Shown here in pieces: positions 5,263 to 43,416 of a stretch of DNA of 64,000 nucleotides; within the stretch, counting starts at the first letter, position 1; each line of letters opens with the position of its first letter. Position numbers and translations under genes: made by a program. The stretch is from an uncultured Thermoplasmata archaeon (lineage in GTDB: Archaea > Thermoplasmatota > Thermoplasmata > WALJ01). The notes under the pieces are model-generated. The model made no database searches. It was not told where the DNA came from and was given only the letters and a program-made list of their open reading frames with translations. The DNA lies in the NCBI GenBank assembly GCA_964475625.1, contig CAYYXK010000001.1, forward strand, positions 30,935 through 94,934, written 5' to 3'.

Positions 5263-5291
5263 ATTTCTCACCGGAGAGGGATGTGCAGGTA

Positions 5292-5299
5292 GATATATG
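5292..5299. promoter_or_regulatory. Shared TATA-like element (gatatatg) between divergent genes
   Basis: This is the only AT-rich TATA-like box in the 74-bp divergent intergenic region. It lies about 30-45 bp from both start codons. Confidence 0.35.
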
Positions 5300-5336
5300 G
5301 GCTTATCGCCTGATGTTTGCAAAGTCTTATTAAGCC

Positions 5337-10657: not shown

Positions 10658-16137
<5,480 letters not shown>

Positions 16138-16145
<8 letters not shown>

Positions 16146-18570
16146 AATGGAAGATACGGATGAACAGAGGATAATCGAAAAACCCGTCGAGGAGGAGATG
16201 AAACACTCCTACATCGACTATGCGATGTCCGTTATAGTAGGCAGAGCGCTCCCTGACGCGAGGGACGGTTTGAAACCGGTACACCGCAGGATACTGTATG
16301 CCATGCAGGACATGGGGATCACATCCACGAAGGCATACAAGAAGAGCGCAAGGATAGTGGGAGAGGTCCTGGGTAAGTATCACCCGCACGGCGACAACGC
16401 CGTATATGACGCACTTGTAAGAATGGCACAGCCCTTCTCGTTGAGGTACCCGCTCATTGACGGGCAGGGTAACTTCGGGAGTGTCGACGGTGACAGTGCG
16501 GCGGCCATGAGATACACCGAGGCCCGGCTCTCGAAGATAGCGGAGTACATGCTGAAGGACATCGAGAAGAACACGGTTGATTTCGTACCGAACTTCGATG
16601 CCAGCCTGAAGGAGCCCGGGGTACTTCCATCGGTCTTTCCGAATCTTCTTGTGAACGGTTCGTCCGGAATAGCCGTGGGAATGGCGACGAACATGGCCCC
16701 CCACAACCTCAATGAGATAATAGACGGGATACTAGCTCTTATGGATGACCCGGAGATGAGCATGCCTGACCTGATGGAATATGTGAAAGGCCCGGATTTC
16801 CCTACGGGAGGTATAATCTACGGGAGCGCTCCGATCTATCAGGCGTATGCCACTGGCAGAGGAGCTGTCAAGGTAAGGGCGAGGACACATATCGAGGAGA
16901 ACGGGAACCGTGAGAGGATAGTTGTCACGGAGATACCCTATATGGTGAACAAGTCCGAGCTTCTGAAGAAGATAGCGGACCTTGTGAAGAACGGGGTCAT
17001 CGAGGGAATATCGGACCTGAGGGACGAGTCGGACCGCAGAGGTATGAGGATAGTCATAGAACTGAAAAGAGATGCGATGTCGGACATAGTTCTCAACCAT
17101 CTCTTCAAACACACACAGATGCAGACCACTTTCGGAATAAACAATGTGGCTCTCGTTGATGGAGTTCCAAGGACGCTCAACCTGAAGGAGCTTATGAACG
17201 AGTTCCTGAAACACAGGAGGACAGTCATACGGAGGAAGACCGAATATGAGCTGAGAAAGGCGGAGGAAAGGGCCCACATACTCGAGGGGCTCCTCATTGC
17301 GCTGGACCACATAGACGAGGTCATAAAGCTCATAAGAGGGTCGAAGAGCGCCGACGAGGCGAAACAGCACCTTATTGCCCGGTTCCTCTTCACCGAAGTT
17401 CAGGCGAAGGCGATACTCGATATGAGGCTTCAGAAACTTACGGGCCTTGAAAGGGAGGCTCTTCGCAGCGAGCACCGGGAACTTATGGAAAAGATAGCGG
17501 ACCTCAAGGACATACTCGCACAGGATGAAAGGATCATGGCGATAATTCGCGAGGACCTTCTTGAGATAAGGGAGAAGTTCGGGGACGAGAGGCGCACCGA
17601 GATAATGGAAAGCAGCGAGGACATAGAGATAGAGGACCTGATACCTGACGAAGATGTCGTTATAACGATGACAAAGGCCGGATATGTGAAGCGCATACCT
17701 CTTGAAACATACAAACAGCAGAGAAGAGGAGGTAAGGGCCTTATCGGAATGGATACGAAGGACGAGGACTTTGTGGTCTCGGCTATGACGACCACCAACC
17801 ACAAGTACATCCTTTTCTTCACGAACATAGGAAGGGTCTACTGGCTGAAGGCATGGCAGATCCCTCAGAGCGGACGGCGTTCAAAAGGAAAGCCCGTTGT
17901 CAATCTGCTCCCGAATCTGGAAAGGGGAGAAAAGATTGCGGCTGCCATACCTGTAAAGGACTTTTCGGAGGGGTACATCGTCTTTGCCACGCGGAAAGGC
18001 ATAATAAAGAAAACCGAGCTCATGGCGTACAGCCGGCCTCGCTCCACTGGAATATGGGCGATAGGCATCAATGAAGGGGATTCCATTGTCGATGTCTCGC
18101 TCTCCTCGGGAGATGACCAGATAGTTCTTGCAACGCGCAACGGATACGCTAACCGCTTCGATGAGAGCGAGGTGAGGCCCATGGGGAGAACCGCACACGG
18201 CGTCCGCGGAATAAGGCTGAAGAGCGATGAGGACGAGGTTGTTTCCATGGATATCGTGCATGAAGATTCCATACTGCTGAGCATAACGGAAAGAGGCTAT
18301 GGAAAGCGCTCTTATGCGAGGGACTACCGAAAGACGCACAGAGGCAGTCACGGAGTGATCGCGATGAGGATAAACGAGAGGAACGGGAAGCTCCTCAGGG
18401 TGCTCGATGTCTCCGATGTGGAAGAGATACTTCTCACAAGCAGGAACGGTATGATGATAAGAGTGCCCGTGGAGCAGATATCCATACATGGCAGGGCCAC
18501 CATGGGTGTGCGGATCATGCGGATGAACGAGGGCGACATCGTTGTGGACGTGGAGCCTCTGGTGGAGTGA
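16138..18570 (+). CDS. gyrA: DNA gyrase subunit A
   Basis: '[29 protein letters not shown]' is present, with the active-site Tyr region and C-terminal beta-pinwheel repeats. Confidence 0.95.
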
Positions 18571-25186: not shown

Positions 25187-25927
25187 TCACTTCGGAGTTA
25201 TTCCTCTCTCGGTGACGGAATATTCCATTATTCCGAGCCGTTCGGGGTGGTTCCTTACCTTCTGAATTATGAGGAAATGACTGAAATGCTTTTCTTTTCT
25301 CTGCTTTTCGAGCTCCACTATGGCATCCACTATCTCTTCCACACCGCTCTCCGTCTTAGTTTCATGGACCCCTTTCAGCATGGTTACCAGCACGACCCCC
25401 CTCTGATGCTGACTGTGTGCCTTGATAGTCCGTAGGGCGGACATGACATGCTGCGGCTCATAATATTCGAGAAAGAAATCCAGCGAGTCTACTATCACCC
25501 TGAAAGGCGGCTCCAGTTTGGATATCTCATATGTTACCTTTGTAAGGAAATTGACACCCTTTGATATGTCCTGTTTCCTGAGCCTCTTGAGATCCCTTAT
25601 TGTAACTCCTTCCTGTCTGTAACGACTTATCTCCACCTCTCTGGCAAGAACCTTCTCATAGTATTCTCCCCCTATGTTCACTATGTTTATGTTCGGATCC
25701 CATCCGAAGTGCTCCATGGTCTTCTTGACATCCTCGTCCCTTTCATTTGTCGTGAAATAGATCACGTTTTCCTTTCCAACGCCTGCCGATGCGAACTGCT
25801 TGGCGAAGAGCTCTGTGCCGGAACCCGGAGACCCGTGTACCAGTATCATGAATCCTTCGGGAACTCCCCCCAGGACCTCGTCCAGTTCGGGTATGCCTAT
25901 GCTTCTGTGTCCCGGCTCCATTACCAT
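25187..25927 (-). CDS. KaiC/RecA-superfamily ATPase-like protein (FlaH/ArlH-like) with Walker A lacking the lysine (GSPGSGTE)
   Basis: 'GIPELDEVLGGVPEGFMILVHGSPGSGTELFAKQF' is the KaiC-like N-terminus. The gene is translationally coupled to the upstream gene. Confidence 0.55.
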   Translation of the reverse strand: MVMEPGHRSIGIPELDEVLGGVPEGFMILVHGSPGSGTELFAKQFASAGVGKENVIYFTTNERDEDVKKTMEHFGWDPNINIVNIGGEYYEKVLAREVEISRYRQEGVTIRDLKRLRKQDISKGVNFLTKVTYEISKLEPPFRVIVDSLDFFLEYYEPQHVMSALRTIKAHSQHQRGVVLVTMLKGVHETKTESGVEEIVDAIVELEKQRKEKHFSHFLIIQKVRNHPERLGIMEYSVTERGITPK

Positions 25928-26496
25928 TCCTCCGTTATCTCTATTCTCTCGTCACAGACCATGGTGAGAGCACGGTTTATCTCATCCGAGCTCTGCTCCT
26001 TTATCGAAAGGACTATCGTATACGCATTCTTAGAGCGCAGGCTGTTGAAAAGTATGTGCATGAACTCGGAAAGTATGCTTATGTTGTTGTGTATGGCCAG
26101 AGAGTTTATCGAATCTATGAAGATGAGTTTTTCCTTTTTGGGGTCCAGTTTTCTCAACAGGAATTCGATCTTAAGCATTATGTTCTCAAGCATCGTTGCA
26201 CTCTCCACATACAAAACATGGCCGTTGGTGGCCTTCTTGTCCATAAGTACGCTGGAACCGCAGTCAACGAAATATATGTGGTCTCTCTTCATCTCCAGAA
26301 GGTCCATAACATTGATTATGGATGCCGCCGGAAGTGTGGAGTTTATGTATATGACATCCAGCTTCTTCTCTATGGATATCTTTTCGGTAAGGGCCCTTAT
26401 CACATCGAAATAGCTGTCGGAATTTACTTCCAGCCCTATGACCGATGCTTCGCTTATGCCTTTCAGTTTCTCATACGCCTGATCCATGACGCCCAT
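25921..26496 (-). CDS. Degenerate KaiC/RecA-like domain protein (no Walker A; Walker-B-like 'LIFIDSINSL')
   Basis: Its secondary-structure-like pattern resembles a RecA fold. Its start and stop overlap the flanking KaiC-like genes. Confidence 0.4.
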   Translation of the reverse strand: MGVMDQAYEKLKGISEASVIGLEVNSDSYFDVIRALTEKISIEKKLDVIYINSTLPAASIINVMDLLEMKRDHIYFVDCGSSVLMDKKATNGHVLYVESATMLENIMLKIEFLLRKLDPKKEKLIFIDSINSLAIHNNISILSEFMHILFNSLRSKNAYTIVLSIKEQSSDEINRALTMVCDERIEITEEW

Positions 26497-27266
26497 CAGT
26501 CCCCACCTCCTTTGAGCATGGGAACCAGAAGAACCCCTATCGGCGTCAGGTCCAGCACATATTTTGCCCTCGAATGGCTGGTGCCTCTCATTTTCACGAC
26601 CTGAAGTGTTCTCAGAAGGTCGCCTCTTCTCTCATAATTTCCCATGAGTATTATCCCGTCGGCTATGGCCTCCTCAACCCCGTATGTGGAGTATCTGGCA
26701 TCCGAAGGAAGTATCTCGGAAACAAGCAGGCTGGTGCAGCCCAACTGAGACAGTTCTTTTCCGAGTTTCAGTATGAAATCCCGTATCTTTTCCTCTGTTT
26801 TTAACTGGAAACAGACCGATGTCACCGAATCTATCACAAGTCTCTTTATGTTGAGTTCCTTGACTATGTCCCCCAACGCATTGACGAGAAGGTCTATCTC
26901 CTCAAAGGAGAACTCCGATTTCTGAAGCCCGAGCCGCTCGTATATGGCGGGCATGTCTATGAATATCAATTTTCCCTTTTTAAGAAGGTCCTCGCTGAAG
27001 AATTCATATGGTATCAGGTTTGCCAGAAGTTTCTCGGATGCCTCTGTGACCGAAACGAAAAGGCAGTTCTCTCCATACAAGGCTCCGTGCACAAGGAACT
27101 CGAGACTTGTGGTGGTCTTCCCAGTACCACAGCTACCTGTTATGAGCACCGTGTTTCCCCTCGGTATCCCTCCGTTCAAAATTGCATCCAGCGTATCCAC
27201 ACCAGTCTTACAGCGGGGTCTGTCAGAAGATTTCACGGTGTTTTTCTTATGGGTGTTGAGAGGCAT
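26496..27266 (-). CDS. KaiC-like RecA-superfamily ATPase with intact Walker A/B
   Basis: 'GVDTLDAILNGGIPRGNTVLITGSCGTGKTTTSLEF' is present, with Walker B 'LVIDSVTS'. Confidence 0.7.
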   Translation of the reverse strand: MPLNTHKKNTVKSSDRPRCKTGVDTLDAILNGGIPRGNTVLITGSCGTGKTTTSLEFLVHGALYGENCLFVSVTEASEKLLANLIPYEFFSEDLLKKGKLIFIDMPAIYERLGLQKSEFSFEEIDLLVNALGDIVKELNIKRLVIDSVTSVCFQLKTEEKIRDFILKLGKELSQLGCTSLLVSEILPSDARYSTYGVEEAIADGIILMGNYERRGDLLRTLQVVKMRGTSHSRAKYVLDLTPIGVLLVPMLKGGGD

Positions 27267-32373: not shown

Positions 32374-32483
32374 GCCCGCCTTCTTCATCCTATTTTCCAT
32401 AATATCTTTTAAGCGAAAAATCGCCTGTTTTCTTCGATTTCAATATTCATTATATTCAATACATATGTAGTCAAATCCGACAG

Positions 32484-32491
32484 TTATAAAT
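32484..32491 (+). promoter_or_regulatory. TATA box (ttataaat) of the type IV filament module promoter
   Basis: It lies about 42 bp upstream of the ATG at 32533, with GAGGTG SD at 32518-32523. Confidence 0.45.
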
Positions 32492-32532
32492 AGGAATATA
32501 GGATATAGCCCACTGCTGAGGTGGCACATCCG

Positions 32533-34212
32533 ATGGCAGAAACAGAAAAAGTTTCGGAAAAGGAATCAAAAAAGTTCGATCTCTTCTCACTGATGGAGCC
32601 GTTTATCCGTAAGACTCCCAAAAAGGTGATGATACCTGCTAAAGAGGCAGAGGACCGGACGGACCAGGGTTCTATATACACCAACATCCCCCCCATAACG
32701 GACCCCAATGTAGATGTGCTTGAGATAAAGCCCATTGTAAAGGATTTTTCATATTCTCGGATATTGTATGACAATGCTAACAGTGAATATATATATCAGG
32801 CAATAGAGCCGCAGCTCAGTGAAAAGGAACAGGGATATCTCATTCTTCTGAAAGACTCCATGAGCAAGACCATGGACTATGAGTGGGAAAAACTGGCCGA
32901 CCATGATAAAAAAGAATACCTTATCGAGAGCATAGAAAGCTTCATCAAAAGCCGGAACCTTGACCTTCCCGAAGTAAGCAAAGAGAAGATAATGTACTAT
33001 CTTGTCCGTGATTTCATAGGTTACGGTCCGATCGATATTCTCATGAATGACGAGGACATAGAGGACATCTCCTGTGACGGTACCAACATACCTCTCTTCA
33101 TATTCCATAAGAAATACGAGTCGATAAAAACAGATGTGAAGTTTCTGGAGGACGAGGTACTTGATTCGTTCATAATCTCTCTGGGACAGCGCTGCGGAAA
33201 GAACATATCTGTGGCAAACCCGATTCTGGACGGTACCAGCAAGGAGGGGCACAGGGTTCAGGCAACATATTCCCATGAGGTTACCACCCGCGGTTCCTCG
33301 TTCACCATAAGGCGTTTCAAAGAAAAGCCCTTCACACCGGTTGAGCTGATAAAGTTCAATACCGCATCCGCTGAAATGATAGCGTATCTGTGGATGATGG
33401 TCGAGAACGGTAAATCGCTAATAGTCTGCGGTGGAACTGCGTGCGGTAAAACCGCGACGCTCAATGCGACAAGCCTCTTCATCCCTCCGGGTGCAAAAAT
33501 CGTTACAATGGAGGACACAAGGGAGATAAACCTGCCACATGAGAACTGGATTCCCAGTACCACGAGGAGTGGTGTCGGCGAAAGAGGCGCTGACGGTAAG
33601 GCCGCCGGTGAGATAGACATGTACGACCTCGTCAGGGCCGCTCTGAGGCAAAGGCCAAACTATATCATAGTGGGAGAGGTGAGAGGTAAGGAGACATACA
33701 CCATGTTCCAGGCCATGGCAACGGGACATACGACATATACGACCATGCACGCCGACTCCGTCAAGTCCATGGTGCACAGGCTTGAGAATCCGCCGATCAA
33801 TACGCCCAGAATCCTTCTTACCGCACTCAACCTTGTCATAATCCAGACCTTTGCGAGGCTGAAGGACCTTCAGGTCAGGAGGATAAAGGAGATTGTGGAG
33901 ATAGTCGGCTTCGAAGCGGAAACGAATGAACTTGTTACGAATCAGGTCTATGCATGGAATCAGATAACGGATACTTTTCTATATAAGGGACACAGTTTCA
34001 TACTCGATGCTATCATGGAAATGAAAAATATGACCCACGAAGACATGCAGAACGAGATGAATCGCAGGGTCGAGGTCATAGAGTATATGGTTAAAAAAAA
34101 CATAGTGGACTACCGGGAAATAGCCAAGATAATCACCGGCTATTACAAAGACCCGGAGGAGACCATAGAGCGCATAAGAGATGAACTTGAGGTGGAATCC
34201 GATGAGTCCTGA
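32533..34212 (+). CDS. FlaI/TadA-like type IV filament assembly ATPase (paralog 1)
   Basis: Walker A 'CGGTACGKTATLNA' is present, along with 'GEVRGKE', 'MATGH', and an archaeal FlaI-type N-terminal domain. Confidence 0.8.
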   Translation: MAETEKVSEKESKKFDLFSLMEPFIRKTPKKVMIPAKEAEDRTDQGSIYTNIPPITDPNVDVLEIKPIVKDFSYSRILYDNANSEYIYQAIEPQLSEKEQGYLILLKDSMSKTMDYEWEKLADHDKKEYLIESIESFIKSRNLDLPEVSKEKIMYYLVRDFIGYGPIDILMNDEDIEDISCDGTNIPLFIFHKKYESIKTDVKFLEDEVLDSFIISLGQRCGKNISVANPILDGTSKEGHRVQATYSHEVTTRGSSFTIRRFKEKPFTPVELIKFNTASAEMIAYLWMMVENGKSLIVCGGTACGKTATLNATSLFIPPGAKIVTMEDTREINLPHENWIPSTTRSGVGERGADGKAAGEIDMYDLVRAALRQRPNYIIVGEVRGKETYTMFQAMATGHTTYTTMHADSVKSMVHRLENPPINTPRILLTALNLVIIQTFARLKDLQVRRIKEIVEIVGFEAETNELVTNQVYAWNQITDTFLYKGHSFILDAIMEMKNMTHEDMQNEMNRRVEVIEYMVKKNIVDYREIAKIITGYYKDPEETIERIRDELEVESDES

Positions 34213-35218
34213 AGTTAGCGATGCATTCAAAGGCCTGGATACGAAAAAATGGAGCCTGTTCCATACGAAAAGAGTCAAGGCCGAAGATGTCATAGAGGGT
34301 TATGGTCCGCACATCGTTTATCTCCCGAAAGAGGCCGTCCCCAGTCAAATAAGACTTACACCCTTTCAACAGACCGCACTTCGTATCATGGGGAAAAAGG
34401 CGGAAAAAGAGATCGAAAAATATCCGGATTTGGATGACTGGCTTCTGAAATCCCGTATGCGTATGAGGGGCGAAGAGTATCTGGCATATGCTCTTCTGAC
34501 GACATATATCATGTGGGCTATTGCGGGCGTTCTTGCAGTTGTATTCATCGCACTCTATTCCGTGATCGGATTCCTTTCCATATTGATCGCACTTATAATG
34601 GTCATGATCGCATTTGTGATTAAACCGTTGATACTTTCGATGCCCAAATCGAAGGCCAAGGGCAGAGGAAGAGATATAGACAAGAAACTCGCGTCCGCCA
34701 TGTCCTTCGTGGCATCACTCTCATCCGCAGATGTGAATGTGGATGTCATATTCAAAGAGCTTGCAAAACAGCCTATATATGGGGAGATACAGAAGGAGGC
34801 CGAATGGATAACCAGAGACACCGAGTTGCTAGGTGTTGACATACTCACGGCCATAAAAGAAGGTGCCCTGCGCAGCCCTTCGGTCAAGTGGCAGGACTTC
34901 CTTCAGGGTGTGGTCACAACCTCCACATCGGGGGGACAGCTCAAGCCTTACTTCATAGTCAAATTACAGGAGTTCGAAAAGGACAGCCAGCTTGACAACA
35001 AAAGAAGGGCCGAAACTCTGGGAATGATGGCGGAATCGTATGTCACCGTCGTGGTCGCATTCCCGCTGTTCCTGATAGTCATCATAGCTATAATGGCGAT
35101 AACGAACGGACAGGCGGAATCAAGCATACCCATGCTCTATGCGGTAGATGCGCTGATGATACCTGGCTCACAGGGTATTTTCCTTTACATCATGTGGGGC
35201 CTTACACAGGAGGCATAA
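34202..35218 (+). CDS. TadB/TadC-like platform protein, N-terminal half (single T2SSF-type domain, multiple TM)
   Basis: It has polytopic TM segments around a cytoplasmic helical domain. It overlaps the ATPase stop by 11 nt. Confidence 0.6.
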   Translation: MSPEVSDAFKGLDTKKWSLFHTKRVKAEDVIEGYGPHIVYLPKEAVPSQIRLTPFQQTALRIMGKKAEKEIEKYPDLDDWLLKSRMRMRGEEYLAYALLTTYIMWAIAGVLAVVFIALYSVIGFLSILIALIMVMIAFVIKPLILSMPKSKAKGRGRDIDKKLASAMSFVASLSSADVNVDVIFKELAKQPIYGEIQKEAEWITRDTELLGVDILTAIKEGALRSPSVKWQDFLQGVVTTSTSGGQLKPYFIVKLQEFEKDSQLDNKRRAETLGMMAESYVTVVVAFPLFLIVIIAIMAITNGQAESSIPMLYAVDALMIPGSQGIFLYIMWGLTQEA

Positions 35219-35219
35219 G

Positions 35220-36137
35220 ATGTCCGATGACAGCTTTGATCTGGAAAAAGCGAAAGCCACCTCAAAAAAGATACTCTACGCATCCGTAGGAATGGCGGTA
35301 ATTTTCATATTCGTGGGTATCCTTGAGATGAACGGTTCGATGAAGACCATGTTTGATGCCTTCGACTATTTCATATTCGCCATACTTGCGATGACGGGGC
35401 CCTATGGCATATACAAAGGAAAGATAGACAAAACCATAGATGAGATAGAGAAAAGGCTTCCCGACTTCCTAAGAGATGTGGCGGAAGCGGGAAGATTCGG
35501 AATGACACTCGCGGATGCCATAGTTGTCGCCGCATCCGGGAGATATGGTAAACTGACCCCGGAAATAAAGAAAATGGCCGCACAGATACAGTGGGGAGTT
35601 CCGGCCACTCAGGCCCTCAAATTATTTGCCGAGAGGATAGATACTCCTCTCGTGAGGAGGGTCACCACCATAGTCATAAAATCTTCGGATGCCGGAGGTA
35701 ATGTCGCTGATGTTCTTTCTATGGTCTCTCACAGTGTAAAAGATGTCCACCATGCAAAGGAAGAATTAAGCATAGAGATGGTCACTTATCTGGCTGTTAT
35801 CTATATCTCATTCATGGTTTTCATAGCCACGATACTCATCCTTGACCTGACATTCCTTCCCCAGATGGAACAGGCCGGAGAAGCCCTGTCCCGTTCCGCG
35901 GATATAAGTAGTGGCGCAGGTTCCGTGACACTGATACAATCCGAATACATACCGGAGATCAAGTTCATATTCACACTCACCATCATAATACACGGAGTGG
36001 GAGATGGATTGGTGGCGGGAATACTATCTAAAGGCAAGTTCTCGGAAGGCATGAAGCATGCATTTATCATGGTCCTTATAGGTTTCATCACTTTAAGGGT
36101 CATGTTCGGCGGATTGAACCTTGCAGGAGGCGGATAA
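35220..36137 (+). CDS. TadB/TadC-like platform protein, C-terminal half (second T2SSF-type domain)
   Basis: Its architecture is similar to the preceding ORF. It starts 1 nt after the preceding stop. Confidence 0.6.
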   Translation: MSDDSFDLEKAKATSKKILYASVGMAVIFIFVGILEMNGSMKTMFDAFDYFIFAILAMTGPYGIYKGKIDKTIDEIEKRLPDFLRDVAEAGRFGMTLADAIVVAASGRYGKLTPEIKKMAAQIQWGVPATQALKLFAERIDTPLVRRVTTIVIKSSDAGGNVADVLSMVSHSVKDVHHAKEELSIEMVTYLAVIYISFMVFIATILILDLTFLPQMEQAGEALSRSADISSGAGSVTLIQSEYIPEIKFIFTLTIIIHGVGDGLVAGILSKGKFSEGMKHAFIMVLIGFITLRVMFGGLNLAGGG

Positions 36138-37817
36138 ATGGCGGGAAGCCAAGTGGTAGAAAAAGTGGAGAAAAAGGAGGATACCGCTCCCCCACCGGGA
36201 ATCAAGGACAAAGTGATATCGTTCGCAATAGGAAAGACGCCGGTCAAGATAATGCTTCCGAAGGAAGAGACATCCAGAGACCTCTCAAAAGACATCACAC
36301 TGATACCCAAGATAGTGGATATGCATGTCAATGAAATCGAGATAGAACCCGTTGAAGAGCCGTATTCATATGTAAGGATAAAGTACGATACGATATCGAA
36401 CGAATATATGTATGAAGTAATAGAGCCCCAGTTGAACGATGATGAGGATGAGGTTTTGATAGCGGTCAGGAAGGCACTTGTCGATAGGTTTAACCTCGTC
36501 GGCAAGGAGGAAATGAACAATAGAGAGGAGATTCTCAGGGAACTCACGGAGAAGGCCATAGACGAAACCGGTATAGAACTTAGCGAGATATCAAGGAAAC
36601 GGATATTCTATTACACGAGAAGAGACTTCCTCGGCTTCGGAGCCATACATGTCGCTATGATAGAGAAACAAGTGGAAGACATATCTTGTGATGGCGTCAA
36701 CATACCTATATATATCTATCACAGAAAATATGGCTCCATAAAGTCGAACATAAAGTTTGAAACGGCGGAGGAACTCGATAGTTTCGTGGTATGGCTGGCA
36801 CAGAGGTCGGGAAAGCACATCTCCGTGGCAAGTCCCATGCTTGATGCCACCATGCCGGATGGCTCCAGGTTAAATGCCACACTCGGCACCCATGTGACCA
36901 AGAGGGGTTCGTCGTTCACAATAAGGCGATTCAAAGAGGACCCGTTTACCCCGATAGACCTGATAAAGTTCAAGACGATGAGTTCCGAAATGATGGCATA
37001 TCTCTGGATTGCCATAGAGAACGGCCAGTCCATGCTGATATGTGGAGGTACCGCATCGGGTAAAACCACCACACTCAATGCTGTCCTGCTGTTCATCCCG
37101 CCTCAGATGAAGATAGTCAGTATCGAGGATACTCGAGAACTCAATTTACCCCATGAGAACTGGGTGCCTACCCTTACCAGAAGCGGTTTCGGTGCCAAAA
37201 ACCCCATAACCGGAAAGGCTGCGGGGGAGATAGATATGTTCGACCTTCTGGCGGCGGCACTGAGGCAGAGGCCGCAGTACATGATGGTGGGAGAGGTCAG
37301 GGGTTCGGAAGCGTATGTTGTCTTCCAGGCCATGGCAACGGGAAAGAGCGCATACACGACATTCCACGCGGAGGATGTTCAGGCAATGGTGCACAGGCTT
37401 GAAAACGACCCGATAAACCTGCCGAGGACCCTGATCGCCGCTCTGGATATCGTGCTTCTGCAGGGACAGGTGAAGGTCGGGAAGAACATGACAAGAAGGG
37501 TCAAAGGTCTTATCGAGATAGTCGGTACGGACCCGCAGACCGATGAACTCATCACGAACAATGCATATATGTGGAACCCTGCAGACGATACCTTCAATTT
37601 CAGCGGCCACAGCTATGTCTATGAAAAGGTCGCATTGACAAAGAACTGGTCGGCCCGGGAGATGGAAAGAGAGGTCAAAAGAAGAAAGGACATACTTGAT
37701 TACATGAAGAAGATAGGGGTGAGCAACTACAAAGAGGTCGCCAGAATAGTCTCCGCATACTACAAGGACAAGAAGAAGGTCATGGAAGAGGTCAGAAGGG
37801 TTCTCGAAGAGGAATGA
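36138..37817 (+). CDS. FlaI/TadA-like type IV filament assembly ATPase (paralog 2)
   Basis: Walker A 'CGGTASGKTTTLNA' is present, along with 'GEVRGSE' and 'MATGK'. Its start abuts the preceding stop (TAAATG). Confidence 0.8.
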   Translation: MAGSQVVEKVEKKEDTAPPPGIKDKVISFAIGKTPVKIMLPKEETSRDLSKDITLIPKIVDMHVNEIEIEPVEEPYSYVRIKYDTISNEYMYEVIEPQLNDDEDEVLIAVRKALVDRFNLVGKEEMNNREEILRELTEKAIDETGIELSEISRKRIFYYTRRDFLGFGAIHVAMIEKQVEDISCDGVNIPIYIYHRKYGSIKSNIKFETAEELDSFVVWLAQRSGKHISVASPMLDATMPDGSRLNATLGTHVTKRGSSFTIRRFKEDPFTPIDLIKFKTMSSEMMAYLWIAIENGQSMLICGGTASGKTTTLNAVLLFIPPQMKIVSIEDTRELNLPHENWVPTLTRSGFGAKNPITGKAAGEIDMFDLLAAALRQRPQYMMVGEVRGSEAYVVFQAMATGKSAYTTFHAEDVQAMVHRLENDPINLPRTLIAALDIVLLQGQVKVGKNMTRRVKGLIEIVGTDPQTDELITNNAYMWNPADDTFNFSGHSYVYEKVALTKNWSAREMEREVKRRKDILDYMKKIGVSNYKEVARIVSAYYKDKKKVMEEVRRVLEEE

Positions 37818-37818
37818 A

Positions 37819-39918
37819 TTGAGGCTCAGAGATATCGTTGAAGACGAAATAGCGGATGTTTTCGCAGAGGAAGGGATAGAGGAACTTTATGAAACACAGG
37901 TAGCGCCGCTGCGCTCCGTGTATTCCGGAAATAGTGTCGTTGTTGCGTATCCTACCGCCAGCGGCAAATCTCTTATCGCATATGTCGGAGCGCTCCGTTC
38001 CGTACTGGATGGAAGGAAGGCCCTCTATATGGTACCCCTGCGTGCACTTGCATCCGAAAAATACGAGGACCTCAGAAAATTCGGAAGAATCGGAGTGAAG
38101 GTCGGCATAAGTACCGGAGATTTCGATAGAAAGGACGAAAGACTCGGAAGGAACGATATCGTCATCGCGACCTCGGAGAAGACGGACTCACTCATAAGAC
38201 ACAAAGCGAGCTGGATGCGGGAGATAGGTGCCATAATTGTCGATGAGGTGCATCTGATGAATGATATGGGTCGAGGGCCCACTCTCGAGATCACACTTTC
38301 AAAGCTCAAAAAACTAAACCCCGGAGCACAGATAATCGCTCTCTCCGCAACGATAAGCAATTCCCGTGAAATCTCGGAATGGCTGGATGCGGAGCACTTT
38401 GAAAGCGACTGGAGGCCGGTTTCGCTAAGAAAAGGTGTACACCACGGAAGAGAGATACACTTCATGGACGGTGAGAGGCGCAATCTCGGAAAGATGGGGG
38501 TAGAAGGAATAGTTTCGGATGCGCTCGGCCGCGGTGGACAGGCACTTGTTTTCGTCTCTACCCGCAGATATACCGAATCTCAGGCTGAGAAATTGATAAA
38601 AACCGTGCTGAAACACATTGAACCGCCGGACACGGATGAGATAGGTCTTCTGGGCGAGGATAAAACAGCCGAAAGACTTCTGAAATGCCTTAAGAACGGG
38701 GTGGCTTTCCACCATGCCGGCCTGTCTTCCGTTCAAAGGAAAGCCGTGGAGCGCCTGTTCAAGGATCGAAAAATCGGGGTCATAGTTGCAACGCCCACTC
38801 TTGCGGCGGGAATCAATCTTCCTGCAAAAACGGTGATAGTCCGAGATACCAAACGATATGACATGTCGGGTTTCGGATGGGTCTCTCTTCCGGTTATGGA
38901 GGTCGAGCAGATGCTCGGACGGGCAGGTAGGCCGAAGTATGATAAGGAAGGGGAGGGTGTTATAGTTGCGAAATCAAAGGAAGACATCGAAAAGCTCAGG
39001 GAAATCTATCTTGAGGGGGAAAGCGAACCGGTCAGGTCATCTCTGGGTGCGGAAGATTCGTTGAGAACGCATACCCTTGCTCTCATATCCACCTTCGGAA
39101 TCTCATCCGAAGAAGAACTGTATGAATTTTACTCCTCCACATTCTATGGGAAACAGAACGATGTGATGAAGCTCGAAAGAGCGATACGAAGGGTGCTTCA
39201 ATTCCTTTTCGACAATGACCTTATCGAGATAGGGAACGGAGAACTCAGACCTACGGATTTCGGTATAAGGACCTCGGAGACATACATTGACCCCCTGAGT
39301 GCGGTTATCATAAGAAATGCACTTGAAACCACGGACGAGATAAGTGATTTCGGCTATCTTCACACTCTGGGCCTTACTCCAGATATGTATCCTCTTTATC
39401 CTAAAAAAGGAGAGGAAAGCAGGATATACGAAATGATGGGGAAAGATGAATATGAGACGCCCATAAGCCCTTATGACATGCGCGAAAACCGATATGTGCC
39501 TGCCTTCAAAGTGGCCCTTGTGCTCCATGACTGGATAAAAGAGGTTCCGGAGAAAAAGATAACCGAGGAGTGGAACATCTATCCGGGAGACCTCGCTTCA
39601 AGGGTTGAACTCTCGGAATGGCTTATGACATCCACCCGTGAACTCTCCCGACTTTTCAGGCCGGAGGATACGCATCGTATCTCACTGCTCGTTGAAAGGA
39701 TACACCATGGAGTGGAGGAAAATGTCCTTAACATGATGCGTTTGGAAGGCATAGGTCGGACAAGGGGAAGAGCGCTCTACAACGCCGGTTTCCACAGCAT
39801 ATCCGATTTAAGGGGCGCTACGGAGGAACAGCTTCGGGATGTTCCCGGAATCGGTGAGGAACTCGCAAAAAGGATAAAGGAACAGGTGGGTGGAAAAAGA
39901 GAACACGGATACTGGTAA
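37819..39918 (+). CDS. hel308: Hel308/Hjm Ski2-like DNA helicase
   Basis: 'AYPTASGKSLIA', 'VDEVH', 'SATISN' and 'HHAGL' are present, with a C-terminal HhH domain. The TTG start at 37819 has a GAGGAA SD and lies 1 nt after the preceding stop. Confidence 0.85.
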   Translation: MRLRDIVEDEIADVFAEEGIEELYETQVAPLRSVYSGNSVVVAYPTASGKSLIAYVGALRSVLDGRKALYMVPLRALASEKYEDLRKFGRIGVKVGISTGDFDRKDERLGRNDIVIATSEKTDSLIRHKASWMREIGAIIVDEVHLMNDMGRGPTLEITLSKLKKLNPGAQIIALSATISNSREISEWLDAEHFESDWRPVSLRKGVHHGREIHFMDGERRNLGKMGVEGIVSDALGRGGQALVFVSTRRYTESQAEKLIKTVLKHIEPPDTDEIGLLGEDKTAERLLKCLKNGVAFHHAGLSSVQRKAVERLFKDRKIGVIVATPTLAAGINLPAKTVIVRDTKRYDMSGFGWVSLPVMEVEQMLGRAGRPKYDKEGEGVIVAKSKEDIEKLREIYLEGESEPVRSSLGAEDSLRTHTLALISTFGISSEEELYEFYSSTFYGKQNDVMKLERAIRRVLQFLFDNDLIEIGNGELRPTDFGIRTSETYIDPLSAVIIRNALETTDEISDFGYLHTLGLTPDMYPLYPKKGEESRIYEMMGKDEYETPISPYDMRENRYVPAFKVALVLHDWIKEVPEKKITEEWNIYPGDLASRVELSEWLMTSTRELSRLFRPEDTHRISLLVERIHHGVEENVLNMMRLEGIGRTRGRALYNAGFHSISDLRGATEEQLRDVPGIGEELAKRIKEQVGGKREHGYW

Positions 39919-39947
39919 GTTTAATTTACCGAATGTGTTTCGGGATT

Positions 39948-40508
39948 ATGCTCTCCGAAAAAGGTGCTCGTCCGGAAGAATCGCTTCTGTTGATCATAGA
40001 TTATCAAGAGAAATTGTTTCCCGGGGTGGATGAGAGATACAGAAAAAGGATCTTGGATGCTGTTCCCAAGCTTATCAGGGCTGCGAAGATTCTGGGAATT
40101 CCTGTCATTCATACCGAACAGTATCCGAAGGGGCTTGGGAGGACAATACCTGAGATATCCGAATATCTGGAAGGTAAAGCGATAGAGAAGAGCGCGTTCA
40201 GTTGTTTCGGGTCTGATGAGTTCAGGGACGCTGTTGTGGAAAGTGCCGCCCGTTATCTCATAATCGCAGGAATAGAGACCCATATCTGTGTGAACCAGAC
40301 GGCTTTTGATGCCGTTGATATGGGATATACGGCAGTACTTGTGGAAGATGGGAGCGGTAGCCGAAAAACGGATGACCATGAGACCGCAGTACGAAAAATG
40401 GAGAACAACGGCGTCCTTGTGGAAAGTTCGGAGATGATAATCTACGAGTGGCTGGAGAGCGCAAAGAACAGAAATTTCAAAAAGATTCTGGATATTGTAA
40501 AAGGTTGA
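39948..40508 (+). CDS. Isochorismatase-family cysteine hydrolase
   Basis: It shows an 'IIDYQ...D.......AG.ETHICV' pattern. An alternative ATG lies at 39933. Confidence 0.65.
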   Translation: MLSEKGARPEESLLLIIDYQEKLFPGVDERYRKRILDAVPKLIRAAKILGIPVIHTEQYPKGLGRTIPEISEYLEGKAIEKSAFSCFGSDEFRDAVVESAARYLIIAGIETHICVNQTAFDAVDMGYTAVLVEDGSGSRKTDDHETAVRKMENNGVLVESSEMIIYEWLESAKNRNFKKILDIVKG

Positions 40509-41337: not shown

Positions 41338-41459
<122 letters not shown>

Positions 41460-41529: not shown

Positions 41530-43416
41530 ATGAAGAGAAGGTTGGTTCTTGTAACAGCGGCCCTGATTTTCGCGGCCATGCAGTTCTCTATGCTGGGAGT
41601 CATGATGGGTGACGCATATCCTCCCGTGACCGGTGGAGATGTAGAGTGTGATACGACCCTGCAGATGATACCTATGACCCACACCATAGGCGGAGGTACG
41701 ATACACTGGCATATAACAGGCGACAATGCAAGGGAACTGAGAATGCTCATACTGGACCGCTTGGACAATGCGACTATAAACGACATCGCTCCGAATGATA
41801 CTGGCCAAGGTAGGAGAATCGGAGAAATAGATGAGTCCGAAATACGGGCCTATGTTGCAGCAGGAGATCATTCTTTCCTACAGAACTACATTCAGGGAAT
41901 TCGAAAAATGTGGATTCGTGTTGATAATGATACTAGAACATTTGAAGAGAATCCCTCTGGAGAGAACTATGATACGGTTATGTTTCAGGGTGTAGAGATA
42001 ACCCGTGCATCTCTTTCCAACAATAATATATATCAAGATACGGATGGTCTTATTGGACAGACGGCCGATTCCAACGCAGACATAGATATCTTCATGACCA
42101 TAAGTATGAAAGATACTGTTCGCATTACTGATATAGACCTTTCCAACCCCACCATACTTAAAGCGCCCTTTGAATGCCTTACAATGTTCGATGAGAACGG
42201 GGATGTCGTTGATTCCGTGGAATATCGTGGAGACGGGGGCATGACCCACTGGACTATTAGCATCGGCTTTGATAGCTTCTATAATCCTTCTGTAAAAACC
42301 GGCACTCTGTATCTCATAAGAACCCCTGCGGGAGAAGTGTACAGATACAGCACGGATGTCCAAGACGGCGGTGTTATGGAAGAAGGAATGCAGCACAGTG
42401 ATTTTAATCCCATTGAAAACCCCCAGATACTTTTCATAATAATGATAGTCTTCGGCTATCTGGCTGTTGCGCTCCCCACACATTTTTATCTGAAATACAG
42501 GAGCAGATATCCCAAAAGATATCGCGTAGAGGCAAAAAGGATCAAATGGCTGCACTGGCTCGGAAGAATTTTCCTTCTTTTGATGCTCTTGCTCTATTTC
42601 TGGCCCATGATCGGGACATTCTATTTCTCAGGTATCATGTTCATAGGTATGAGCATCGGATTGGTTGCTCTCTCCGCAGTGCTCAGTAAAGTGACATATG
42701 AAAGGGCGGAGGCGGCCATACCCCCCGAATATTTCGAAGAGAAAAAGGCCATCGGGAAGGCGCAACCTGCAAAAAAGAGAAAGAAAACCCCTACGCCTCC
42801 TGTTGCGGCATCATATGAACCGGATAAGGACAAGATACACTGCATAAGGTGTGGTGCATTGATAACCATAAAGGAAGGAGAGAACCTTCTGAAAGTGAAA
42901 TGCCCCGTATGCGGAGCTGTACAAAAAAGAGTTGAGCGCGGATACAACCACCTCATACTGGACAGCAGCCTGAAAAACACATATAACATGTTGGCTGATT
43001 TTCTGAGGGACGGGGACGTGGCTCTGTGCCTCAGTACCAGTATGCCGGGCAAACTGAAAAGGACCTATCACCTTTCGGGAAAACTGAAATGTATATGGCT
43101 CAGCGCGGCGGGAGGAAAAGACACCCTTGATCCGTCGAACATAGACAAGATATCCGAGACCATAGATCGTTTCGCGGAAAAATACCCGGCATCAATCATA
43201 CTGGTGGACGGGCTTGAGTACCTTGTCGTGGAACACGGCTTCGATGCGGTATCGAGATTCCTCAAAAAGGTGATGGACACGGCATCCATGAGGGATATAA
43301 CACTGATGGTTCCAATTAACCCTGCTTCTTTAAGCAGCGATGAACTTACCATATTGAAGGGTGAGTTCGACAGAGTGGAGGCCCTGGAGGATATGGATGA
43401 AAGGGAATTCTTCTGA
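41530..43416 (+). CDS. Membrane receptor-like protein. It has a signal peptide and ~300-aa extracellular domain, TM helices, a cytoplasmic zinc ribbon, and a C-terminal degenerate KaiC/RecA-like (DUF835-like) domain
   Basis: The signal peptide is 'MKRRLVLVTAALIFAAMQF'. Hydrophobic helices lie at ~aa 295-380. It has 'CIRCG...CPVCG' and a C-terminal 'IILVDGLEYLVVEHGFD...ITLMVPINP' domain. GGGGAGG is the SD before the ATG. Confidence 0.5.
   Translation: MKRRLVLVTAALIFAAMQFSMLGVMMGDAYPPVTGGDVECDTTLQMIPMTHTIGGGTIHWHITGDNARELRMLILDRLDNATINDIAPNDTGQGRRIGEIDESEIRAYVAAGDHSFLQNYIQGIRKMWIRVDNDTRTFEENPSGENYDTVMFQGVEITRASLSNNNIYQDTDGLIGQTADSNADIDIFMTISMKDTVRITDIDLSNPTILKAPFECLTMFDENGDVVDSVEYRGDGGMTHWTISIGFDSFYNPSVKTGTLYLIRTPAGEVYRYSTDVQDGGVMEEGMQHSDFNPIENPQILFIIMIVFGYLAVALPTHFYLKYRSRYPKRYRVEAKRIKWLHWLGRIFLLLMLLLYFWPMIGTFYFSGIMFIGMSIGLVALSAVLSKVTYERAEAAIPPEYFEEKKAIGKAQPAKKRKKTPTPPVAASYEPDKDKIHCIRCGALITIKEGENLLKVKCPVCGAVQKRVERGYNHLILDSSLKNTYNMLADFLRDGDVALCLSTSMPGKLKRTYHLSGKLKCIWLSAAGGKDTLDPSNIDKISETIDRFAEKYPASIILVDGLEYLVVEHGFDAVSRFLKKVMDTASMRDITLMVPINPASLSSDELTILKGEFDRVEALEDMDEREFF

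Follow-up and report, generated by a model that had tools for sequence, protein, structure and literature searches.

A Thermoplasmata operon with two ATPases and a split platform: the probable membrane motor of an adhesive type IV pilus

What is built by a locus in which two secretion ATPases bracket a platform that is itself divided between two genes, and what part does each ATPase play? We followed up this question for four genes from an uncultured Thermoplasmata lineage other than that of Cuniculiplasma, located in a stretch of 64,000 nucleotides (the window, meaning the whole stretch of DNA that was analysed). A preliminary description had taken them for a type IV filament assembly cassette, and matches to the Pfam families T2SSE, PilB3_C and T2SSF bear this out. 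We conclude that the four plus-strand genes form a real operon, very probably encoding the membrane motor with which an archaeon builds an adhesive type IV pilus, and that they are a further example of an already described system.

The operon and its split platform

The four open reading frames, all on the + strand, lie where they had originally been placed, and are preceded by promoter and ribosome-binding elements:

32476-32494, + strand: promoter block CCGACAGTTATAAATAGG, with a BRE-like CCGACAG ahead of the TATA box
32484-32492, + strand: TATA box TTATAAATA, about 40 nt 5' of the conserved ATG
32517-32524, + strand: Shine-Dalgarno-like sequence TGAGGTGG, 8 nt 5' of the E1 start codon
32533-34212, + strand: ATPase E1, 559 aa with the conserved ATG as start
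34202-35218, + strand: platform N-half Fa, 338 aa
35220-36137, + strand: platform C-half Fb, 305 aa
36138-37817, + strand: ATPase E2, 559 aa

A five-species alignment supports the single TATA promoter proposed earlier: the TATA element is identical throughout, as is most of the promoter block, while the intergenic DNA around the block has diverged. The longest reading frame for E1 begins with a GTG at 32521 (563 aa); the Shine-Dalgarno-like sequence and the ATG at 32533-32535 are both invariant in the five-species alignment, which points to 32533 as the most likely start instead. A GGAGG or GAGGTGG Shine-Dalgarno-like sequence lies 5' of every start. Regarding the tight junctions that had been claimed, the 11-nt overlap of E1 and Fa (Fa ATG at 34202, E1 TAG at 34210-34212) and the 0-nt junction at which Fb and E2 abut both stand, but Fa and Fb are separated by a 1-nt spacer (Fa TAA at 35216-35218, Fb ATG at 35220) and do not overlap by 1 nt. 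The genes would be read as a single transcript from the conserved BRE/TATA promoter and be translationally coupled, an arrangement that suggests co-ordinated production of the four proteins.

Fa and Fb each contain one Pfam T2SSF domain (42.7 and 62.3 bits, respectively; cutoff 25.2), and no significant similarity was found when the two sequences were compared. On the NCBIfam FlaJ/ArlJ profile of 555 positions, Fa covers 5-224 and Fb covers 267-542, a pattern that identifies them as predicted complementary halves of a FlaJ-type platform. Fa, for which hydropathy was analysed as well, begins with about 90 cytoplasmic residues, followed by a hydrophobic hairpin (residues 93-150), a single cytoplasmic T2SSF helical bundle and C-terminal transmembrane helices; in Fb, transmembrane helices stand on either side of a single T2SSF domain. 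The bundle in an AF2 model of Fa (pLDDT 75) resembles the cytoplasmic domains of PilC, OutF and EpsF, with target-normalised TM scores of 0.67-0.76. Among 1711 Fa homologues, the best 120 span 334-351 aa, bar one truncated entry of 208 aa.

One platform gene broken by a sequencing error would have undone the two-gene reading, as was recognised from the start. This explanation is excluded: the platform is split in 83/83 related loci, with differing junction sequences, and three independent assemblies carry the split in identical sequence. Because the profile matches are complementary and the genes strictly co-occur, we infer that Fa and Fb form one polytopic platform, each contributing one T2SSF cytoplasmic bundle and transmembrane helices to what is elsewhere a single FlaJ/PilC-type protein.

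A class-wide layout shared with the CdiP pilus

Relatives of Fa occur at 484 places in species-representative genomes, and our neighbourhood counts rest on 83 fetched loci. Where a locus was informative, the ATPase upstream had E1 as its best match (81/81) and the one downstream had E2 (74/75); in 74/75 informative loci all four genes are present in the same order. Across Thermoplasmata, Methanomassiliicoccales and Thermoplasmatales, the succession of ATPase, two half-platforms and ATPase is the norm. The rarity implied by the preliminary description thus does not hold: the layout is class-wide in Thermoplasmata, not peculiar to the window genome, and has been published for Cuniculiplasma (PMC5155288, PMC12448462).

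In C. divulgatum, the cluster was described in 2016 as an ATPase (CSP5_0712), TadC-like proteins (0713-14) and a further ATPase (0715) with remote pilins, and was likened to the Aciduliprofundum arrangement (PMC5155288). In 2025 it was assigned, by genomics and RNA-seq and without gene deletions, to the machinery of the adhesive CdiP pilus; the filament structure was solved, the pilins are encoded about 500 kb from the machinery genes, and the cells adhered but did not twitch (PMC12448462). With CdiPFa and CdiPFb sequences transcribed from the supplement of that study (PMC12448462), Fa showed 32% identity to CdiPFa over 272 aa (E 4e-38) and Fb 34% identity to CdiPFb over 229 aa (E 8e-39). The order E1-Fa-Fb-E2 was also found on Cuniculiplasma-like and Caldiplasma contigs, where the upstream ATPase scores higher against window E1 than against E2 (419 vs 378 bits) and the downstream ATPase higher against E2 than against E1 (432 vs 363 bits). 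These comparisons identify Fa and Fb as the putative orthologues of CdiPFa and CdiPFb, with a shared split point, and E1 and E2 as the corresponding positional orthologues of CdiPE1 and CdiPE2.

Two ancient ATPases and their possible division of work

As had been proposed, the ATPases resemble one another as paralogues (50% identity over residues 29-549). Both match Pfam T2SSE (E1 124.8 bits, E2 112.3 bits; cutoff 24.9) and PilB3_C, and PilB3_N is weak for E2. The closest solved structure is afGspE 2OAP for E1 (427 bits) and E2 (441.5 bits) alike, with FlaI ranked second and CpaF third. Identity between the two amounts to 28% in residues 1-75, 36% in 76-165, 57% in 166-270 and 61% in 271-480; describing the N-terminal divergence as strong was nevertheless an overstatement, as this part is also the least conserved among the orthologues of each paralogue. 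A neighbour-joining tree places every E1 sequence on one side of a split, with a bootstrap of 47/100 for the E1 clade and a single outgroup that nests among long-branched Thermoplasmatales E2 sequences. Mean distances are 0.53 and 0.50 within the paralogues and 0.91 between them. It is the constancy of position, with E1 always upstream and E2 downstream in all informative loci but one, which argues that E1 and E2 are paralogues of an ancient duplication.

The claim of full catalytic motifs needs a correction. E1 and E2 both possess Walker A, the Asp box, Walker B and the second histidine of the His box, all conserved in the two paralogues across at least 60 species, and the first His-box histidine is kept in 67/67 E1 orthologues, all four E1 motifs being conserved; in the E2 of the window, however, Lys replaces this first histidine. 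Across 62 species, the E2 residue at the position of E1 H403 is K in 53, R in 3, T in 4 and H in 2, and this loss in 60/62 E2 orthologues may be a new point. E2 carries both active-site and N2-domain substitutions lineage-wide. An ancient pair, a fixed order, retained catalytic motifs and the substitutions in E2 together argue that the two ATPases most likely work as non-redundant partners within one machine and are not spare copies. They could divide the work as a hetero-oligomer, by sequential use, or by moving the filament in opposite directions.

The first of these options would be one obligate hetero-oligomeric ring, for example an alternating one, docked on a Fa-Fb heterodimer. Fixed gene order and tight coupling suggest co-ordinated production, and of 24 paralogue-specific fixed residues, nine lie within residues 193-253, a part of the N-terminal domain that probably contacts the neighbouring subunit in hexamers of this family. 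E1 and E2 are also the most tightly correlated pair in mirror-tree distance matrices (r 0.98, partial r 0.72), although this may merely reflect that they are the same kind of protein. On the other hand, we know of no hetero-hexamer among the solved members of the family, and the complete genome CP070739.1 keeps E1, Fa and Fb with no adjacent E2, so that E1 is apparently able to stand alone. We consider an obligate mixed ring possible but doubtful.

Alternatively, the two could be an extension/retraction pair like bacterial PilB/PilT, one assembling and the other disassembling the pilus. Two ATPases in one operon, the class-wide retention of both, the altered histidine of E2 and the bacterial two-motor precedent raised by the CdiP authors (PMC12448462) would fit. 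Nonetheless, E2 equals E1 in length with full N-terminal domains, it is not PilT-like (37 bits against the pilT_fam cutoff of 319), and C. divulgatum adheres without twitching. Moreover, Aap pili of S. acidocaldarius are reported to retract without a dedicated retraction ATPase (PMC11178785), and a second motor would therefore be unnecessary for retraction in archaea. Such a pair seems to us unlikely.

It is very unlikely, in our assessment, that E1 with Fa and Fb with E2 are two independent half-machines, or that the second ATPase is merely a spare, whether redundant or used differentially. Paralogous ATPase/tadC modules may be differentially regulated and share pilin sets (Makarova et al., PMC4858521), and RNA-seq of C. 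divulgatum is unequal for Fa and Fb, at about 2:1 (PMC12448462). However, Fa and Fb are complementary, not equivalent; the genes co-occur in order in nearly every locus, across junctions too short for internal promoters, and the mirror-tree test revealed no preferential E1-Fa or E2-Fb pairing.

Pilins, function and known systems

The earlier statement that pilin and peptidase genes are lacking nearby agrees with our scans, which over all 64 kb of the window turned up no class III signal-peptide ORF, Pilin_N-type motif or DUF7289 homologue, and no Peptidase_A24-type prepilin peptidase among the approximately 40 window ORFs scanned against Pfam. In relatives, a DUF7289 gene with a class III signal peptide directly adjoins the operon in 62/80 loci, a link between the module and pilin-like substrates. 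Sister groups of the window lineage usually have this neighbour; it is absent beside the operon in the window lineage and in the five relatives closest to it, and none was seen in Thermoplasmatales loci. That most relatives have an adjacent DUF7289 pilin-like gene and the window lineage does not may also be a new point. Among other neighbours, KaiC-like genes of ArlH-like fold lie 5 kb upstream of the operon, and one relative encodes, directly upstream of E1, a solute-binding protein of 1025 aa whose N-terminus is class III-like.

These neighbours could be read as signs of an archaellum remnant, or of a bindosome-like or secretion pseudopilus system instead of a pilus motor, and the best NCBIfam names, FlaI and FlaJ, and matches to BasE and BasF point the same way. 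Yet all scores fall far under the curated cutoffs (FlaI 421 bits for E1 and 441.6 for E2, against 550; FlaJ 69 against 550; BasE 209 against 1000; BasF 53 against 1300), no archaellin or arlC-G genes are present near the operon, synteny of the KaiC-like genes was not found in relatives, and the published assignment of the orthologous operon is to a genuine pilus (PMC12448462). We regard this reading as extremely improbable. A known archaellum-accessory cluster with adjacent archaellins in close relatives would have counted against the preliminary description: a characterised layout does exist in a relative and comes near to this, but it serves a pilus, with remote pilins.

Very probably, the four genes specify a motor in the cytoplasmic membrane that assembles a type IV pilus of the euryarchaeal PilB3/afGspE-like kind and is orthologous to the CdiP machinery. 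From what is known of the family, E1 and E2 would be soluble secretion-superfamily ATPases docking on the platform, and their ATP hydrolysis would drive pilin subunits from the membrane into the filament. Pilins of the PF07790 Pilin_N and/or DUF7289 type are expected and, like the class III signal peptidase, would be encoded elsewhere in the genome, in keeping with C. divulgatum and with the PilB3 locus of H. volcanii, where PilA pilins of PF07790 type are supplied in trans (PMC4858521). By analogy, the role of the pilus is most likely surface adhesion, and its filament and function are hence less open than first believed, the orthologous machinery being that assigned to CdiP.

Parts of this arrangement recur in other systems. 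Two tadC-like genes and pilins in trans are common in euryarchaeal type IV pilus loci (PMC4858521). The Aciduliprofundum boonei locus, compared here by its published description, likewise unites two distinct secretion ATPases in one Thermoplasmatota locus, but is reported to include one pilA-like pilin gene, which the window lacks (Makarova et al. 2016, PMC4858521). The adhesion-pilus modules PilB3-PilC3 of Haloferax volcanii and OE2215R of Halobacterium salinarum (euryarchaeal Clade 2) share the PilB3_C domain, a module without pilins in cis and a role in adhesion; as described, the locus is a single ATPase/TadC module with no second ATPase (PMC4858521). A platform from two T2SSF genes is also found in Methanococcus Epd-type pili (Clade 1), whose clade is described as 'ATPase, two TadC components' (Makarova et al., PMC4858521), and in bacterial Tad (TadA, TadB/TadC; CpaF), but each has one ATPase where the window has two. 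TadA-family profiles give 138 and 146 bits for the window ATPases and do not reach their cutoff of 373. Bacterial Tad also requires a secretin and further envelope parts. Archaeoglobus fulgidus GspE (PDB 2OAP/2OAQ) shares the domain plan of E1 and E2 down to the C-terminal extension and aligns nearly end to end, but it keeps both His-box histidines where E2 lacks the first, and in E1 and E2 an 8-residue insertion precedes the GEIDMYD motif. Compared with Cuniculiplasma, the window proteins are only 32-43% identical and the ATPase N-termini 30-40 aa longer, and the filament has been observed in Cuniculiplasma; both nevertheless share the order of ATPase, N-half, C-half and ATPase, the same split point, a pilin that is not beside the operon, and four genes that abut or overlap.

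Anatomy and surroundings of the operon

The region at 32484-37817 holds four plus-strand genes in the order first proposed for it: ATPase, platform N-half, platform C-half, ATPase. Their coordinates, together with those of the promoter block upstream of the first gene, are as follows.

32476-32494, upstream of E1: promoter block CCGACAGTTATAAATAGG
32533-34212, plus strand: E1, first ATPase
34202-35218, plus strand: Fa, N-terminal half of the platform
35220-36137, plus strand: Fb, C-terminal half of the platform
36138-37817, plus strand: E2, second ATPase

As described earlier, E1 and Fa overlap by 11 nt and Fb abuts E2; the supposed 1-nt overlap between Fa and Fb is actually a 1-nt spacer. When the junctions are read from the sequence, a GGAGG-type Shine-Dalgarno motif stands ahead of each start codon. 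In an alignment of five species, the TATA element and most other positions of the promoter block are identical while the intergenic DNA around it has diverged, and the TGAGGTGG Shine-Dalgarno motif and the ATG at 32533 are likewise conserved. This pattern gives good support to the TATA promoter called in the preliminary description, and the start of E1 is most likely 32533, which would make it a protein of 559 aa, equal in length to E2.

The operon is neighboured by genes for NrdD/NrdG, a CTP-transferase/NTPase and a Hel308-like helicase. Genes in these flanking positions are not conserved among relatives, and the conserved unit is thus the four genes. The Hel308-type helicase gene has a TTG start that begins 1 nt past the E2 stop, and an isochorismatase-family gene follows it after 14 nt (37819-40508); both may be co-transcribed with the pilus operon in this lineage, the arrangement being common only to three of the five closest relatives (L005, L006 and L009). 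On the minus strand, 5 kb upstream of the operon (25187-27266), lie three consecutive genes, for a KaiC-like ATPase of 256 aa, a weakly KaiC-like protein of 191 aa and a KaiC-like ATPase of 246 aa that is also DUF7504/GvpD-like. We considered these as ArlH-like accessories of the operon and rejected the idea: they occur nearby only in the closest relative and are therefore probably unrelated to the pilus genes.

Several other features of the window deserve mention. A type IIG restriction-modification enzyme of 1169 aa with Eco57I methylase, N6_Mtase, MmeI_Mtase and TaqI_C domains (12636-16145, plus strand) is flanked by ORFs that, judged by their N-terminal sequences, are GyrB-like (10709-12646) and GyrA-like (16138-18570). 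Within this stretch (10709-18570) it overlaps both by a few bases, and the arrangement suggests insertion of a defence gene into a gyrBA pair. A stand-alone 5S rRNA gene is found at 41338-41459 (plus strand; Rfam, 99 bits); the window contains neither a 16S nor a 23S gene, and no tRNA gene anywhere in its 64 kb. A 628-aa protein (41530-43416, plus strand) combines an N-terminal signal or anchor with a C-terminal DUF835/DUF7504 (KaiC-related) domain, and its gene is followed by a DUF2240 gene and then by a divergently oriented FtsZ gene.

Two paralogous ATPases and a split platform

Both ATPases match the Pfam T2SSE family above its gathering cutoff of 24.9 (E1 124.8 bits, E2 112.3 bits), both carry the PilB3_C extension, and hydropathy gives no membrane segments in either. 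Assignment to more specialised motors was rejected in each case. For the archaellum motor FlaI/ArlI (NCBIfam NF058587 equivalog), E1 scored 421 and E2 441.6 bits against a cutoff of 550, and an archaellum operon does not fit the locus either, as no archaellin or arlC/D/E, F, G or H gene is co-located and no ORF with a class III signal peptide occurs in the 64 kb. Scores were similarly low for PilT-type retraction ATPases (pilT_fam, 44 and 37 bits for E1 and E2 against 319) and for the bindosome assembly proteins BasE (209 and 185 against 1000) and BasF (53 and 27 against 1300), and profile scores for Tad membership were far under the curated cutoffs. E2 is also not of the short PilT-like form: it has 559 aa and a full N-terminal region alignable to E1 and to Archaeoglobus fulgidus GspE (afGspE), the closest solved structure to both ATPases (PDB 2OAP).

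E1 and E2 are 50% identical over residues 29-549, with identity of 28-36% in the first 165 residues and about 60% beyond. The strong N-terminal divergence reported earlier is thus only partly right: identity between the two is indeed lowest there, but the same part is also the least conserved among orthologues within each paralogue.

A comparison of 67 E1 and 62 E2 orthologues showed that Walker A (GGTAxGKT), the Asp box (EDTRE), Walker B (VGEVRG) and the second histidine of the His box are kept in both. The preliminary description had credited both ATPases with full Walker A/B and His boxes, which holds for E1 in all 67 orthologues; E2 retains everything except the first His-box histidine. 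This residue is His in 67/67 E1 sequences and in afGspE, and is replaced in 60 of the 62 E2 sequences (Lys in 53, Arg in three from Thermoplasmatales, Thr in four), His being found in two. Altogether, 24 positions are fixed differently between the paralogues, with the His-box change standing out most, and residue 244 is His in every E1 and Ser in every E2 compared. The residue 244 and His-box signatures are common to Methanomassiliicoccales-like and Thermoplasmatales genomes.

The platform is divided between two genes, each with exactly one Pfam T2SSF domain (Fa 42.7 bits, Fb 62.3 bits; gathering cutoff 25.2) and with membrane segments flanking the T2SSF bundle by hydropathy. On the NCBIfam FlaJ/ArlJ profile of 555 positions, Fa covers 5-224 and Fb covers 267-542, and the two have no detectable similarity to one another; they are thus the N-terminal and C-terminal parts of an ordinary platform and not duplicates. 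The cytoplasmic helical bundle of Fa, as modelled with AlphaFold2 (pLDDT 75), matches solved structures of the PilC, OutF and EpsF cytoplasmic domains (target-normalised TM 0.67-0.76, probability 1.00). With one T2SSF repeat per gene, Fa and Fb do not have the two-repeat, single-polypeptide form of PilC, GspF and FlaJ, and theirs is a platform form like TadB/TadC or like CdiPFa/Fb, the platform proteins of the adhesive type IV pilus (CdiP) of Cuniculiplasma divulgatum.

An obvious concern was that the split reflects a sequencing error or a pseudogene. This origin is ruled out, since the split is present in all 83 related loci, junctions vary in length among lineages (-4 to about +10 nt or longer), and three independent read-set assemblies of identical sequence have the identical arrangement; the two genuine ORFs described at the outset are thus upheld. 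Homologues of Fa with 535-538 aa were considered as unsplit platforms and rejected: in L088, a locus from a Thermoplasmatales-like genome, a separate Fb still follows, so that these proteins are N-terminally extended forms of Fa and not fusions. The Fa of this locus (L088:8001-9617) reaches 538 aa because about 215 aa are added at its N-terminus, and it precedes a normal Fb; the locus also has a 177-aa Pilin_N gene 2.1 kb upstream of E1.

Conservation of the module and the search for pilins

Fa has 1711 database homologues, and the best 120 of these, from Thermoplasmata and Methanomassiliicoccales, are 334-351 aa long except for one truncated entry. Scanning one genome per species turned up 484 places that encode a relative of Fa, out of which 80 loci were fetched. 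By tblastn, the upstream ATPase best matches E1 in 81/81 loci with room upstream, and the downstream ATPase best matches E2 in 74 of the 75 loci with room downstream of Fb, the exception being the complete genome CP070739.1. The rarity that had been implied for this layout is not borne out by these numbers. The distance matrices of E1, Fa, Fb and E2 are all correlated in pairs at 0.94-0.98, which fits vertical co-inheritance; with no differential pairing among them, this mirror-tree test is neutral on preferential co-evolution of E1 with Fa or of E2 with Fb. A neighbour-joining tree places every position-1 ATPase on the same side of a split (bootstrap 47/100), and the sole outgroup, afGspE, joins the long-branched E2 sequences of Thermoplasmatales. 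Paralogue-specific placement and the tree split together show that the duplication of E1 and E2 is older than the divergence of Methanomassiliicoccales-like and Thermoplasmatales orders. Overall, the two-ATPase, split-platform module is ancient, vertically inherited and almost invariant, and is found in hundreds of Thermoplasmata species.

The earlier observation that no pilin or prepilin peptidase lies nearby was confirmed over the whole 64-kb window: a Pilin_N-type motif scan, a six-frame FlaFind-like scan for class III signal peptides, the kind of check proposed at the time, and tblastn with 15 DUF7289 proteins returned no credible pilin, and Pfam searches returned no A24-type peptidase among the approximately 40 window ORFs scanned. 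The FlaFind-like scan took the place of a strict Pilin_N-like regular expression, which failed to detect the Pilin_N protein annotated in one related locus (L004), and it recovered the DUF7289 family in relatives. The absence of a pilin from the window is consistent with, though no proof of, a PF07790-type pilin that is encoded in trans and processed by a class III signal peptidase.

In relatives, a gene of the DUF7289 family (about 270-345 aa) adjoins the operon in 62/80 loci, directly upstream of E1 in 54 and directly downstream of E2 in 8; examples among L010-L084 are L012:7312-8253, L037:13646-14503 and L080:5041-5991. Its product has a textbook class III signal peptide (e.g., ...RRDQEG/VASTVGTIMALLVFL...) and scores 25-53 bits, around the 27-bit Pfam cutoff; DUF7289 is also present in the precomputed annotation of CP070739.1. 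The gene is absent from the window, from its five closest relatives (L005-L009) and from the Thermoplasmatales loci, in all of which tblastn with the 15 DUF7289 proteins gave no significant matches. Given its presence in most relatives and its absence from the window lineage, the lack of a pilin beside the operon is a trait of this lineage, in a module that otherwise has five genes. The DUF7289 protein may be the arCOG02911 'minor pilin' of 250-550 aa (Makarova et al., PMC4858521), and its gene, standing beside the operon in most relatives, is a candidate for a fifth component, possibly a minor pilin.

Further genes of note lie near the operon in some relatives. In L019, the gene directly upstream of E1 (4967-8044) encodes not a DUF7289 protein but a 1025-aa SBP_bac_5 solute-binding protein with a Big_1 domain, whose N-terminus passes the class III-like scan and which recalls the bindosome substrates of Sulfolobus. 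Very large surface proteins (1100-2100 aa) occur near the operon in several Methanomassiliicoccales, at L004:2287-7182 and near 2337 in L063, and on the minus strand 6-9 kb downstream of the operon in L012, L039, L052, L055, L058, L075 and L083. The one in L004 is annotated with Pilin_N and FG-GAP; others have a short basic N-terminus followed by ...[KR]A/ASxLIV.... These large proteins may act as adhesins, either at the pilus tip or fused to a pilin.

Function and comparison with known systems

The best explanation of the four-gene operon is an assembly motor for a CdiP-type type IV pilus, with pilins and peptidase supplied in trans. Its support lies in family and fold, in the structure and conservation of the operon, and in orthology to the genes of Cuniculiplasma. 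The pilus would most likely serve adhesion, Fa and Fb would together form one platform, and the substrate would be a PF07790 or DUF7289 pilin.

What two ATPases might do in such a motor can be read in several ways. They could form a hetero-oligomer, act sequentially, or work as an extension/retraction pair; the last reading loses weight because C. divulgatum does not twitch and E2 does not resemble PilT. We tentatively suggest, with clearly less than even confidence, that E1 and E2 are differentiated, obligately co-operating motors universal to the type IV pili of Thermoplasmata, either as a hetero-oligomeric ring on an Fa-Fb heterodimer or as drivers of opposite steps, with the loss of the E2 His-box histidine and the H244/S244 difference between E1 and E2 as the signature of this division of labour. 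If true, two dedicated motors would be a first for an archaeal type IV filament system, and the pair would extend past Cuniculiplasma to the whole class, including many environmental Methanomassiliicoccales. K403 of E2 and H244 of E1 offer defined residues for mutation.

The kind of system described here is already known. In C. divulgatum, CSP5_0712 and 0715 were described as secretion ATPases around two TadC-like genes, CSP5_0713-14, with pilins encoded elsewhere and the locus likened to one of Aciduliprofundum (Golyshina et al. 2016, PMC5155288). In euryarchaeal Clade 2, two tadC-like genes are common and pilins are often missing in cis from ATPase/TadC modules; in A. boonei, one locus holds two distinct ATPases (Makarova et al. 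2016, PMC4858521). More recently, the Cuniculiplasma genes were named CdiPE1, CdiPFa, CdiPFb and CdiPE2 and the CdiP filament was solved; its pilin genes lie about 500 kb away from the machinery genes, and C. divulgatum adheres but does not twitch, the second ATPase being called enigmatic (ISME J 2025, PMC12448462). With orthologous machinery and a solved filament published, the filament is not the wholly open question it was initially taken for.

All four window proteins are orthologous by sequence to this Cuniculiplasma set. Against sequences transcribed from the supplement of PMC12448462, window Fa is 32% identical to CdiPFa over 272 aa (E 4e-38) and window Fb 34% identical to CdiPFb over 229 aa (E 8e-39), and the CdiP platform is broken at the same place. 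The gene order is likewise that of the published CSP5_0712-0715, of Cuniculiplasma-like loci (L085/L086), of Caldiplasma (L087) and of L088. Contigs with proteins 88% identical to the CdiPFa/b transcription and one Caldiplasma genome have E1-Fa-Fb-E2 with abutting genes, and in these Cuniculiplasma-like and Caldiplasma loci the upstream ATPase best matches window E1 and the downstream one window E2.

The window locus is ordinary for its class, so we claim no new system, and its value is comparative. Three Methanomassiliicoccales genomes examined in 2016 had no secretion ATPase. What may go beyond the cited papers is the near-invariant, class-wide conservation of the ATPase pair, including in many environmental Methanomassiliicoccales, and the fixed substitution in the E2 His box. 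As the module is class-wide and its paralogues differ at fixed active-site positions, the 2025 puzzle of two pilus ATPases in an apparently non-twitching archaeon becomes a class-wide, testable question, and the 'unique' CdiP machinery, known from one acidophile, turns out to be an ancient module of the whole class.
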